Shown: one piece after another, positions 1 through 62,736 of the stretch
Layout: each line of letters starts with the position of its first letter
Position numbering within the stretch: position 1 is the first letter of the stretch
NCBI GenBank assembly: GCA_964016885.1
Contig: OZ024752.1
Location: 8,184,001-8,248,000 of the forward strand
Direction: 5' to 3'
Length of the DNA: 64,000 nt
Source of the DNA: Eledone cirrhosa
Taxonomy: Eukaryota
Position numbers and translations under genes: made by a program
Notes under the pieces: model-generated
Told to the model about the DNA's origin: nothing
The model's database searches: none
Seen by the model: only the letters and a program-made list of their open reading frames with translations

Positions 1-451
1 CATTGAATTGTATATATATATATATATATACACATATATATGTGGGTGTGTGTGTGTGTGTGTATGTGCATGTTCGTATGTATTTATATATATGTATGTG
101 TATATGTGTATTTATGTATATATATCAAATTTCGTTTTTGAATTTGTTTTGCGAGATTTCTTATCTGAAAACGTGTGTAGAAACAGATATTGTTATACTT
201 TGAGAGGGTCATGTTGTCAATTTATTGGCAACATGACCTTGCCAAAGTATAACAATAAATAAATATTTATATATATGTGTGTGTGTGTGAGCAAGACATG
301 GTCAGCTGACCTGGCATTGTTCACAACAGGATAACCAGCAAACCAGCACGACAGTGAAACATATGTAATATGTAACTAAATATGTATTTGATGCAATACT
401 GATTCTTTGTTCCTTTTTAATATCATTATACATACATATATATATATATAT

Positions 452-600
452 AACATGGGCGGTGGTGGTGAGAGCAGACCTCAGATCACTGAAGCTCACA
501 GAGGAGATGACGAAGGACCGTAACAAATGGAGAGATGCTGTGCTTAATAAGACCTGTCCACTCTTGCAAGCAAGGAAAAACGGACGTAAAATGATGATGA
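452..600 (+). mobile_element. RTE-clade LINE 3' end fragment
   Basis: Matches the 3' end of the RTE copies at 11253-11479 and 12792-13188 (VVRADLRSLKLTEEMTKDR..WRDAVL); ends in an (ATG)n tail; flanked by (TA)n. Confidence 0.85.
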
Positions 601-1092
601 TATATATATAAATATATATATTTATATATAGCTGTTGTATATACCCTGATACCCTGATGTAAGTTAACACCTGTTATACACACTCTGCAAGATATATTTA
701 TATATATATATATATATATATATATATATATATATATATATATATAGTGCATAATTAAACAAAAATATACAGAGATACAATTACACAAAGTCTTATTAGT
801 TTAACGCTTGTAGGAAAAGGGGAAAAAAGCGTTGTCTTAATGTATTGGACCTTAGTCCTTCCTTGGAAGAGAAGATTGGAAGGGTGGAAAAAACAAAAAA
901 TCAGATTTGTCATTATGGCTGATGTGGACAGTTAAGTGAAGGTGTAAATGGTCCAGGGTGTGGAAGGGAGGCGGAGAGGTGATGGTGTGGTGTGTGGTGT
1001 CTATCATTAGTACTGGTCTATTACAGGTGAGGTGCATTTTGTGAGTGTGTGGGTTGCTGAAGAATTCTATCTAACATTATCTTTGTTTGGTT

Positions 1093-4000
1093 ACCAACCA
1101 CTTTACAGAGTGTATTGTAACATGACACCAGCACTACCACTTTACAGAGTGTACTGTGTGTATTGTATCATGACACAAACACTACCACTTTACAGAGTGT
1201 ACTGGGTGTATTGTAACATGACACCAGCACTACCACTTTACAGAGTGTACTGACTGTATTGTATCATGACACCAGCACTACCACTTTACAGAGTGTACTG
1301 TGTGTATTGTATCATGACACAAACACTACCACTTTACAGAGTGTACTGGGTGTATTGTAACATGACACCAGCACTACCACTTTACAGAGTGTACTGACTG
1401 TATTGTATCATGACACCAGCACTACCACTTTACAGAGTGTACTGTGTGTATTGTATCATGACACAAACACTACCACTTTACAGAGTGTACTGGGTGTATT
1501 GTAACATGACACCAGCACTACCACTTTACAGAGTGTACTGGATGTATTGTATCATGACACCAACACTACCACTTTACAGAGTGTACTGGGTGTATTGTAA
1601 CATGACACAAACACTACCACTTTACAGAGTGTACTGGGTGTATTGTAACATGACACAAACACTACCACTTTACAGAGTGTACTGGGTGTATTGTAACATG
1701 ACACAAACACTACCACTTTACAGAGTGTACTGTGTGTATTGTATCATGACACAAACACTACCACTTTACAGAGTGTACTGGGTGTATTGTAACATGACAC
1801 AAACACTACCACTTTACAGAGTGTACTGGATGTATTGTATCATGACACCAACACTACCACTTTACAGAGTGTACTGTGTGTATTGTATCATGACACAAAC
1901 ACTACCACTTTACAGAGTGTACTGGGTGTATTATATCATGACACCAACACTACCACTTTACAGAGTGTACTGTGTGTATTGTATCATGACACCAACACTA
2001 CCACTTTACAGAGTGTACTGGGTGTATTGTATCATGACACCAACACTACCACTTTACAGAGTGTACTGGGTGTATTGTAACATGACACCAGCACTACCAC
2101 TTTACAGAGTGTACTGTGTGTATTGTATCATGACACCAACACTACCACTTTACAGAGTGTACTGGCTGTATTGTATCATGACACCAACACTACCACTTTA
2201 CAGAGTGTACTGGGTGTATTGTATCATGACACCAGCACTACCACTTTACAGAGTGTACTGGGTGTATTGTATCATGACACCAACACTACCACTTTACAGA
2301 GTGTACTGGATGTATTGTATCATGACACCAACACTACCACTTTACAGAGTGTACTGGGTGTATTGTATCATGACACCAGCACTACCACTTTACAGAGTGT
2401 ACTGGATGTATTGTATCATGACACCAACACTACCACTTTACAGAGTGTACTGGGTGTATTGTATCATGACACCAACACTACCACTTTACAGAGTGTACTG
2501 TGTGTATTGTATCATGACACCAACACTACCACAGTTCAGAGTGTACTGGCTGTTTTGTATCATGACACCAACACTACCAGTTTACAGAGTGTACTGGATG
2601 TATTGTATCATGACACCAACACTACCACTTTACAGAGTGTACTGGGTGTATTGTATCATGACACAAACACTACCACTTTACAGAGTGTACTGGGTGTATT
2701 GTAACATGACACCAGCACTACCACTTTACAGAGTGTACTGGGTGTATTGTATCATGACACCAGCACTACCACTTTATAGAGTGTACTGGGTGTATTGTAA
2801 CATGACACAAACACTACCACTTTACAGAGTGTACTGGGTGTATTGTATCATGACACCAACACTACCACTTTACAGAGTGTACTGTGTGTATTGTATCATG
2901 ACACCAACACTACCACAGTTCAGAGTGTACTGGCTGTTTTGTATCATGACACCAACACTACCAGTTTACAGAGTGTACTGGATGTATTGTATCATGACAT
3001 CAACACTACCACTTTACAGAGTGTACTGGGTGTATTGTATCATGACACAAACACTACCACTTTACAGAGTGTACTGGGTGTATTGTAACATGACACCAGC
3101 ACTACCACTTTACAGAGTGTACTGGGTGTATTGTATCATGACACCAGCACTACCACTTTACAGAGTGTACTGGGTGTATTGTATCATGACACAAACACTA
3201 CCACTTTACAGAGTGTACTGGGTGTATTGTATCATGACACCAACATTACCACTTTACAGAGTGTACTGGGTGTATTGTATCATGACACCAGCACTACCAC
3301 TTTACAGAGTGTACTGGGTGTATTGTATCATGACACCAACACTACCACTTTACAGAGTGTACTGGGTGTATTGTATCATGACACCAGCACTACCACTTTA
3401 CAGAGTGTACTGGGTGTATTGTATCATGACACAAACACTACCACTTTACAGAGTGTACTGGGTGTATTGTAACATGACACCAGCACTACCACTTTACAGA
3501 GTGTACTGGGTGTATTGTATCATGACACCAGCACTACCACTTTACAGAGTGTACTGGGTGTATTGTATCATGACACCAACACTACCACTTTACAGAGTGT
3601 ACTGGGTGTATTGTATCATGACACCAACACTACCACTTTACAGAGTGTACTGGGTGTATTGTATCATGACACCAACACTACCACTTTACAGAGTGTACTG
3701 GGTGTATTGTATCATGACACCAACACTACCACTTTACAGAGTGTACGGGGTGTATTGTATCATGACACCAGCACTACCACTTTACAGAGTGTACTGGGTG
3801 TATTGTATCATGACACCAGCACTACCACTTTACAGAGTGTACTGGATGTATTGTATCATGACACCAGCACTACCACTTTACAGAATGTACTGGGTGTATT
3901 GTATCATGACACCAACACTACCACTTTACAGAGTGTACTGGGTGTATTGTATCATGACACCAGCACTACCACTTTACAGAGTGTACTGGGTGTATTGTAT

Positions 4001-4736
4001 CATGACACCAGCACTACCACTTTACAGAGTGTACTGGGTGTATTGTATCATGACACCAACACTACCACTTTACAGAGTGTACTGGGTGTATTGTATCATG
4101 ACACCAACACTACCACTTTACAGAGTGTACTGGGTGTATTGTATCATGACACCAACACTACCACTTTACAGAGTGTACGGGGTGTATTGTATCATGACAC
4201 CAGCACTACCACTTTACAGAGTGTACTGGGTGTATTGTATCATGACACCAGCACTACCACTTTACAGAGTGTACTGGATGTATTGTATCATGACACCAGC
4301 ACTACCACTTTACAGAATGTACTGGGTGTATTGTATCATGACACCAACACTACCACTTTACAGAGTGTACTGGGTGTATTGTATCATGACACCAGCACTA
4401 CCACTTTACAGAGTGTACTGGGTGTATTGTATCATGACACCAGCACTACCACTTTACAGAGTGTACTGGGTGTATTGTATCATGACACCAACACTACCAC
4501 TTTACAGAGTGTACTGGGTGTATTGTATCATGACACCAACACTACCACTTTACAGAGTGTACTGGGTGTATTGTATCATGACACCAGCACTACCACTTTA
4601 CAGAGTGTACTGGATGTATTGTATCATGACACAAACACTACCACTTTACAGAATGTACTGGGTGTATTGTATCATGACACCAACACTACCACTTTACAGA
4701 GTGTACTGGGTGTATTGTATCATGACACCAACACTA
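1093..4736. repeat. 48-bp tandem satellite (~76 units) derived from an RTE 3'UTR-type segment
   Basis: Unit ccactttacagagtgtactgggtgtattgtatcatgacaccaacacta; a single-unit version with the same flanks occurs at ~52590-52660. Confidence 0.97.
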
Positions 4737-4849
4737 GAGAGGTTGTCAAGTTCCTAACAAGACCAAAAGATCCTTTCTAGCCGATGTTGCCTCGGTTTAT
4801 TTAAACATTGCCACCATATTAACAACTATTTGGCTGTTTTTGTCTTGGT

Positions 4850-61149: not shown

Positions 61150-61897
61150 CATGTCATCACTGGCATCATCAGTGTAATGAGTGTCATTGTAATCATCACC
61201 GCCATCGTCACCATCCTCATCACCAACACCACCACCATCATCACTGTCATTATAATCAGCGTCATTGTCACCATCATCATCACCAACACTACCATCATCA
61301 TCGTCATTGTAATCATCATCATCATCATCACCAACACTACCATCATCATCGTCATTGTAATCATCATCATCATCGTCATTGTAATCATCATCATCATCAT
61401 CACCAACACTACCATCATCATCGTCATTGTAATCATCATCATCATCATCACCAACACTACCATCATCATCGTCATTGTAATCATCACCGTCGTCATCATC
61501 AACATCATCACCATCATCATCACCAACACCATCATCATCACCAACAACATCACCATCATCATCATTGTCACTGTAATCATCACCGTCGTCGTCATCATCC
61601 ACACCATAATCATCATCAACATTGTCACCACCACAACCATCATCGTTAACATCATAATCTCCATCATCACCATCATCATCATCATCATCACCAACACCAA
61701 CATCATCACCATCATCACCAGTGTCATTGTAATCATCACCGACATCAACATCCACATCATAATCGTCATCATCACCGACATCAACATTGTCATCATCATC
61801 ATCATCATTGTAATCACCAGCATCACCATTACCAACATCATCATCATTAACATCATAATAATCATAATCACCATCATCCTCAACAACAACAACAACA
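61150..61897. repeat. (CAT/CAC)n compound microsatellite
   Basis: Direct reading; internal ~48-bp higher-order repeats. Confidence 0.95.
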
Positions 61898-62062
61898 CCG
61901 TTTTTGCCCATTTCCCGCATGGGTTTGATGGGTTTGTGAACGTGGAAAATCGGACGTAAAAACAATGATGATGATGATATATATAAGTATATAATATATA
62001 TATATATATATATATATATATATATATATATATATATACACACACATATATATATATATAGA

Positions 62063-62459
62063 TACCTAAGTACAAAGTGAAACCTACTACAGTCAGTAGG
62101 CACCTCTAACAAAATACACCCCCGTCCCACTACCCCCACTCCATCCACACCACCCCTTTCAATGTAAAGTTATGTTGGTACTACAACATCCAGCCCGAAA
62201 CAAATGAGGTCGTGTAGGTGTCACGACAAAAAAACACACAGTCCACGCTGTAATGTGGCCGTGTAGGTAACACTGTAAAAACCTCCCAGCCCTACACTGT
62301 AAACGTGGTTGGTGTTAGGAAGGGCATCCAGCCGTAGAAGACCCGCCAGACAGTCCTATGCGAGCAAGACAACCACTCTTGCCTCAAGTGGGAAAACTCC
62401 CGTCCAAACCCATGCAAGCGTGGAATATGGGCGTTAAACGATGATGATGATGATGATGA
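62063..62459 (+). mobile_element. RTE 3'UTR copy
   Basis: Near-identical to 48413-48809. Confidence 0.9.
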
Positions 62460-62540
62460 CACACACACATATATATATATATATATATATATATATATAT
62501 ACACACACACACACACACACAAACATATATATATATATAT

Positions 62541-62736
62541 ATAGGAAAATGTTTGACCATGCAGGCAGAGCGCAAGCTGTTTTGACGGCTATTTCTGGAC
62601 TAGAAATAGCCGTCGAAAAGGCTTGAGCTCTGCCGTCGCGGTCAAACATTTTCCTATTACCCACTCTACTACCCTAAGTATTGAGTACTCTGGAGCATTA
62701 TGGTCCATCTGGTTCCTTACCACAATTCCTTCATTA
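62541..62736 (+). mobile_element. Family A copy with a 5' fold-back at helix II
   Basis: Arms 62541-62596 / 62602-62657 around ggact; GAAA..gccgTC; TA-flanked. Confidence 0.8.

Follow-up and report, generated by a model that had tools for sequence, protein, structure and literature searches.

A hammerhead of scrambled block order, predicted in a tandem repeat beside Penelope-like element ends in an animal genome

The window, the whole 64,000-nt stretch analysed here, lies at C12:8184001-8248000 in the 3.0-Gb genome of the animal Eledone cirrhosa and contains 80 runs of (TA)6 or longer. It probably combines the ends of Penelope-like elements (PLEs), inserted in (TA)n, with an adjacent tandem repeat, family M, whose motif is a predicted self-cleaver with the hammerhead blocks in the order site-GAAA-CUGANGA (S-G-C) and which is likely copied by the same enzymes. 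An earlier note on this DNA had listed 21 sites as type I hammerheads; the two family M cores, CUGAUGA at 57867 and 60007, each with GAAA before and not after it, are absent from that list. The family M features are the following.

59788..60080, + strand: 5'-truncated family M unit with a complete SGC-order hammerhead (covarying-helix model)
59918-21 pairing with 60015-18, + strand: helix Pa, with hairpin h1 at about 59922-42
59944-48 pairing with 59974-78, + strand: helix Pb
59949-54 pairing with 59994-99, + strand: helix Pc
59958-69, + strand: block S, with the predicted cut after 59963
59980-83, 60001-06 and 60007-13, + strand: GAAA, the stem I partner and CUGAUGA
57830..57940, + strand: family M copy truncated just past block S, lying between (TA)n runs and holding only the GAAA and CUGAUGA blocks

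Family M has the block order of type SGC, a non-circular permutation, and all hammerhead core nucleotides are present. Across 110 distinct copies (117 instances minus 7 with a TA run upstream), the UH is at its predicted place in 104, where position 17 is A in 80 and C in 24 and G is avoided; the A15.1-U16.1 pair is likewise found in 104 of the 110. Of the two strands beside the UH, one forms stem III with the bases that follow GAAA and the other forms stem I with the six bases preceding CUGANGA. In particular, stem I is paired in 95-107 of the 110 copies per position, with a sequence that changes by subfamily (UGAUUU/AAAUCA, UGAUCU/AGAUCA, UGGCCU/AGGCCA, UUGUCU/AGACAA and UAGUCU/AGACUA). A classic type II hammerhead, using the second UGAU after GAAA as stem I, is a very improbable reading of the same sequence: its alternative hairpin can form in the window copy, but its pairs hold in only 73-100 of the 110 copies, its site reads AA in 46, UA in 41 and otherwise in 23, and no stem III exists for that register.

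The SGC register was compared across 33 aligned copies, hand-picked as one or two per subtype, using a 34-pair model; 92.2% of the cells are paired and 22 of the 34 pairs change on both sides, a level attained in 0 of 500 shuffles; pairing falls to 26-46% when the register is slid. Stems I and III, which would cross as pseudoknots, are 97.0% and 94.5% paired, with both-side changes in 5 of 6 and 2 of 5 pairs, respectively. Helix Pc, which joins the other sides of stems I and II, is 92.9% paired with both-side changes in 5 of its 6 pairs, and may take the role of the stem I-II contact. Moreover, the 10.1-11.1 pair occurs in 99 of the 110 copies (AU 48, GU 27, UA 12 and GC 12), and all tested helices are kept in 83 of them. 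The sequences flanking blocks C and G are paired with two distinct upstream strands that enclose a hairpin, which gives a predicted four-way junction: stem II would be the single 10.1-11.1 pair, topped by the junction of Pa, h1 and Pb. Because of this one-pair stem II and its junction, family M is an SGC-like variant and not a plain member of type SGC.

Non-circular ribozyme permutations were described in 2023 from searches of metatranscriptomes, metagenomes and RefSeq, and a true stem II is present in the type-SGC hammerheads among them, HRIMA-1 (Eckert et al. 2023, PMC10085705). Family M shares their S-G-C order and complete core, the covariation of stems I and III, the short linker that leads from stem I towards stem II (4 nt versus about 3) and a helix that connects the remaining sides of these two stems. 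In contrast to them, it is encoded in an animal genome as a repeat of about 20,000 copies and is predicted from sequence. Its stem II would comprise a single pair and a junction in which three more helices meet, their partners lying 5' of the cleavage site. No permuted hammerhead in an animal genome was found in the literature searched, most subscription journals being outside its coverage. The one supplementary file of PMC10085705 covered, from a study that searched RefSeq, contains none of the words 'Octopus', 'Mollusca', 'Metazoa' and 'Eukaryota', and the accessible portions of PMC3088659, PMC13725137 and PMC12988792 hold nothing closer to family M.

By prediction, the motif would cleave transcripts of the tandem repeat into RNAs one unit long, which would then circularise. 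It could instead be a conserved protein-binding or reverse transcriptase (RT) recognition fold, derived from a hammerhead whose cleavage has been lost; this is unlikely, as all catalytic positions and the UH are kept across units only 54% identical and G is avoided at position 17, although a stem II reduced to one pair would fit such a loss, as would the disabled hammerheads carried by two young, successful PLEs (families G and H, below) and the finding that cleavage of PAc is dispensable in vitro (PMC11167929).

Several observations weigh against an active ribozyme in family M. Kinship among the copies inflates the covariation statistics. Direct pairing between the C and G blocks amounts to one pair in 94 of the 110 copies, two in 5 and none in 11; base 10.1 may pair in Pa instead in some subfamilies (56 of 110), and the 10.1-11.1 pair is missing in 8 of the 33 aligned copies. 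No autonomous partner of family M was found, and its 5' ends show no clear enrichment at the cut: of 18 short-homology cases, 1 falls there cleanly and 2 do so with TA ambiguity. Further, in published systems, hammerhead cleavage was unneeded in vitro and no reads ended at the site (PMC11167929), and 8 of 9 retrozymes assayed did not cleave (Li et al. 2026, preprint 10.64898/2026.07.22.740005).

Family M units are arranged head-to-tail, are 512-751 nt long with 38-45% GC, and are 54-96% identical, with no tRNA and no shared open reading frame (ORF); arrays reach 5 units in a row, and tail-out pairs also occur. The family is young, with 40 of 40 scored genome matches at 99-100% identity, and (TA)4 or another unit follows 58 of 60 copies. 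Genome-wide, two search patterns, each spanning both the G and the C block, gave 15,900 and 3,903 exact matches (at least 19,800 in all), compared to 0 and 8 for reversed patterns; these patterns specify the linker, GAAAU, spacing and CUGANGA only, and require neither a cleavage site nor pairing. Many variant copies are present in 4 contig runs of one sequencing study, which may be the one behind this assembly; viral data gave no match to the pattern, and ten matches to a looser pattern in metagenomes all lack the helices. One tail-out pair (L281, 1012-1125 on the - strand and about 1500-1700 on the + strand) has arms from different subfamilies, which suggests that some insertions may use two templates rather than a fold-back. 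In a copy at L301 (2090-2203, + strand), the predicted cut has lost two bases, which trimming of the ends and then religation might produce; gag/pol-like frames of a long terminal repeat (LTR) element adjoin one array (L351, 3270-4999). Another short repeat, with GAAA about 15 nt ahead of CUGAAGA (L035, L055, L127, L128, L162 and L273), failed the SGC descriptor.

Like animal non-LTR retrozymes (Cervera and de la Pena 2020, PMC7229834; Li et al. 2026 preprint), family M consists of non-coding, head-to-tail units of low GC content (<50%) with one ribozyme each, found as monomers to multimers beside PLEs. Those retrozymes carry type I ribozymes and family M carries an S-G-C one, so that type I descriptors miss it; it also differs in its TA targeting and inverted partners, and is known from DNA alone. 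Family M would be no independent retrozyme if it were the pseudo-LTR (pLTR) of an autonomous element as yet unseen, and the TA targeting, 5' truncation and tail-out partners that it has in common with PLE ends would agree with this. However, the previous 510-750-nt unit lies upstream of the motif, and no collinear RT was found at the 110 loci with PLE queries (Naiad, Athena and Coprina proteins were not among them), making such an origin improbable.

The remaining features of the window belong to type I hammerhead families, labelled A-H.

45820..46019, + strand: family F, 3' end of a young Hydra-type PLE; U3-A8 type I hammerhead with a long stem III, core 45839-45, predicted cut after 45922
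47286..47302, - strand: family F insertion of 17 nt, starting exactly at the predicted cut and ending at the proximal TA end
46318..46452, + strand: family F fold-back at stem III and tail, without the catalytic core (similar fragments at 13205-13330 and 62544-62734)
58375..58566, - strand: family A, end of a Hydra-type PLE with an intact type I hammerhead, whose core begins at 58472, and part of an inverted partner
18009..18170, - strand: family C, intact type I hammerhead (core starts 18105), Hydra-type pLTR; decayed copies 14165-14272 and 14356-14475
17349..17580, both orientations: family D tail-out pair, Hydra-type; intact core at +17505, decayed core at -17433
52200..52407, + strand: family B, with an intact hammerhead of type I (core 52287) and, at 13592-13712, a decayed copy
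46098..46283, + strand: family E hammerhead inside a near-perfect fold-back, core 46152
46563..46812, + strand: family G, from the 3' end of a young PLE of Neptune type; a 30-nt insert displaces stem I of its hammerhead (core 46694), and decayed relatives occur at 835 and 51774
41740..43750, + strand: family H, 5'-truncated Penelope/Poseidon-type element with broken RT and GIY-YIG at about 42060-43472, inverted pLTR 41740-42062 and a non-canonical core
17601-17975: family H solo pLTR

Broken LINE-type retrotransposons lie at 53074-56501 (+), 22410-25310 (-), 19050-20600, 47780-48419 and 43750-44437, with RVT_1 and zf-RVT found at 54387-56498, and the window holds many minisatellites.

Copies elsewhere in the genome indicate that the type I hammerheads of the window are probably non-coding PLE ends that entered (TA)n runs; six of the eight families are tied to autonomous PLEs. 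Families A-F have a CUGANGA or U3-A8 core, GAAA, UH and three stems in C-G-S order. Genome searches found every family scattered across the genome, with 837-3,220 first-look candidates per family (a figure that does not give copy number), and C, F and G reach 97-100% identity among their best matches. Truncated at the 5' end, the copies terminate at either of two TA steps that follow the ribozyme, often have a tail-out inverted partner and an optional tail, and sit in (TA)n targets. Family A runs into an RT/GIY-YIG frame (one locus, L202), family C forms a pLTR-ORF-pLTR unit (one locus, L395) and family D is continuous with an RT/GIY-YIG frame (L232); in family F the ORF is upstream in 6 loci and inverted in 12, and families G and H are linked to such frames in 15 and 31 loci. 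No such link was found for family E in 25 loci, and one for family B, drawn from nearby matches, was dropped, with (TA)n runs and different untranslated regions intervening.

By motifs rather than by tree, families A, C, D and F are of Hydra type (linker CxCx5C in all four, DKT seen in C and F, and RWR in C), family G is of Neptune type (linker Cx4CxxC), and family H is presumably Penelope/Poseidon-like from its motif pattern. Pfam finds RVT_1 and a weak GIY-YIG in the family H protein and names no domain in the Hydra-type frames; none of 299 homologues has an informative name. A Nematis label for A, C, D and F was replaced by Hydra after comparison with the clade marks of PMC8557442. In the proposed mechanism, the GIY-YIG endonuclease would nick (TA)n, reverse transcription would begin at one of the two TA steps downstream of the ribozyme, and most copies would stop early and acquire an inverted partner; internal RT starts explain the tail in PMC11167929. 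A hairpin with ACUC...GAGU arms, common to the tails of A, C and F and lying between the two TA ends, is a candidate RT recognition element, and a tail-only copy lies at 18960-19053.

Two families have impaired hammerheads. The core of family H reads CAGUUGA in 22 of the 22 copies shown, of 33 found, with stems I-III kept; the family is very abundant (18,039 first-look protein candidates; sites 17670-17715 and 41990-42030 on the - strand). The young Neptune-type family G (46694-46760) has a perfect core and stem II, its stem I partner having been moved by a fixed 30-nt insert, and its older relatives (51690-51780 and 750-860, both on the - strand) additionally have GAAA changed to GAUA or GACA.

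This layer is already explained in print, including the octopus Hydra element, Hydra-1_oBim, which is listed with a type I hammerhead (Craig et al. 2021, PMC8557442) and whose stem III family D resembles. As in the Hydra, Neptune and Penelope/Poseidon clades of that paper, the window families have a C-terminal GIY-YIG, an inverted 5'-truncated partner, an optional tail and a (TA)n preference; in contrast, the tails here are about 80-110 nt versus 30-40 nt, and several more families are present. As with the PLE pLTR hammerheads of Cervera and de la Pena (2014, PMC4209133), single motifs are dispersed from truncated PLEs, with opposite-strand pairs, palindromic stem III and U3-A8 variants; unlike them, family F has a long stem III.

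That long stem III, of 6 bp, likely allows family F to cleave as a monomer. Its core, UUGAGAA, is kept in 44 of 45 copies with an intact 5' flank, and a fold-back pattern for the family gave 354 matches compared to 23 for a control. The 5' ends were scored by hand on 49 fold-backs (the first 50 of the 354 matches, two of which overlap; the pattern excluded gaps longer than 22 nt). In 21 of the 49, the start coincides exactly with the predicted cut and untemplated bases come next, in most cases a single A or T; a further 8 are blunt and 2 are mutated-blunt (0 or +/-1), which is compatible with the cut and brings the range to 21-31 of 49. The other starts are at +1 (1), +2 (2), +3 (7), +8 to +13 (6) and inside (2). 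The 17-nt window copy at 47286-47302 also starts at the cut.

These starts are likely a footprint of cleavage in vivo, left if cut RNAs were reverse-transcribed to their new 5' end, as RT run-off at a ribozyme-made end. The pile-up might instead reflect an RT that stalls on a G-run or on reaching stem III, a less likely source but one with some claim: GGGG and the GC-rich 6-bp stem flank the site, which counts against the cleavage reading, 7 of the 49 ends are at +3, and the pattern left out gaps above 22 nt. On the other side, the ends fall at 0 and not at +1, mostly followed by one untemplated A or T as after run-off, and families with a dimer-type stem III have at most one such end each (A 0/33, B 0/19, C 1/34, D 0/25 and E 0/21, in samples biased to longer copies).

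Overall, the type I hammerheads are genuine but ordinary, and the window is not special in their density. A strict type I descriptor has 3 matches in the window compared to a mean of 0.01 in 100 block dinucleotide shuffles, one that allows a helix mismatch has 5 compared to 0.15, and the final descriptor has 4 compared to 0.1, with 0-1 for decoy cores; the motifs thus exceed chance (3-5 matches versus 0.01-0.15). A background sample of 39 stretches of 10 kb (390 kb) at round coordinates gave 19 matches to the final descriptor, compared to a mean of 1.0 in 20 shuffles. At 62 per Mb, the density of the window is like that of contigs other than C1-C4 (61 per Mb), C1-C4 themselves having 31 per Mb, and the description of the region as locally dense fails. 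Weighted by contig class, these counts extrapolate to about 1.3 x 10^5 intact type I motifs genome-wide (counting error by itself gives a range of about 0.8-2 x 10^5, and matches cluster), versus 2,000-9,000 minimal motifs per genome in PMC4209133; axolotl retrozymes reach 120,000 (PMC7229834). Several more hammerhead families with a U3-A8 core, and many more of type I, are also present in the sample (L223, L224, L229, L102, L196 and L231).

The bounding by (TA)n that had been proposed is borne out: (TA)4 lies within 200 nt downstream of 19 of the 19 sampled hammerheads and of 18% of random positions. The stems also covary among type I families, as had been suggested as a check, with 153 of 210 stem I pairs formed compared to 115.8 after shuffling (0 of 2000 shuffles reach this), a count whose pattern mis-parsed families D, E and G and kept their rows; stem II occurs as GAA/UUU, AAG/CUU, AGG/CCU and GGA/UCC, and the palindromic stem III in several versions. 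Single-strand folding z-scores are weak for 8 motifs (-0.8 to -2.1), pseudoknots being invisible to the method. Rfam reports no hammerhead in the window at E<=1, where the custom descriptors found 3-5, and none at the family M motif in three loci; Rfam is insensitive to these hammerheads.

Among the 21 sites given by the earlier note as about 20 type I motifs, the sequences are present and above chance, but only 6 are complete: 17498, 18049 (-), 52282, 58411 (-), 46143 and 45839, the last with a U3-A8 core that the note had not named. Site 46143, ranked there among the best paired, has U.U at 10.1-11.1 family-wide. Site 46694 has a full core and a stem I of only about 2 bp, its partner strand displaced by the fixed 30-nt insert, and 12727 is a near-complete single U3-A8 copy. 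Sites 13608, 14179, 14384, 17430 (-), 835 (-) and 51774 (-) are decayed; 356, 8027 (-), 13218, 46335 and 62615 are 3' halves or fragments. Sites 17684 and 42019 (-) belong to the family with core CAGUUGA and are not canonical hammerheads; this is family H, the one RT-tied family of the window, whose core is broken family-wide. The statement that only one family can be tied to RT is correct within the window; genome-wide, A, C, D, F, G and H are tied, and their collinearity with RT/GIY-YIG frames supports the proposal of Penelope-type pLTR ends in TA microsatellites. The accompanying retrozyme-like reading does not survive: none of the listed families forms a short head-to-tail array in the loci viewed, and they are mostly 5'-truncated autonomous elements with a tail-out inverted partner and therefore not retrozymes.

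The layer described in the note is thus real and already explained in print; what goes beyond it is family M, with its predicted ribozyme, and, to a lesser degree, the likely family F footprint. The balance leans modestly towards the joint claim that family M is the first non-circularly permuted hammerhead from an animal genome, an active SGC-order ribozyme with a four-way junction for stem II that drives a circular-RNA retrozyme of about 20,000 copies invisible to standard type I and SGC descriptors, and that family F records PLE hammerhead cleavage in vivo. If true, a chromosomal, high-copy and richly covarying animal SGC-like hammerhead with a new stem II architecture would widen the definition of the hammerhead, and its many natural variants are usable for structure work; retrozyme surveys built on type I descriptors would undercount. 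Further, the family F footprint makes hammerhead cutting during PLE transposition directly testable.

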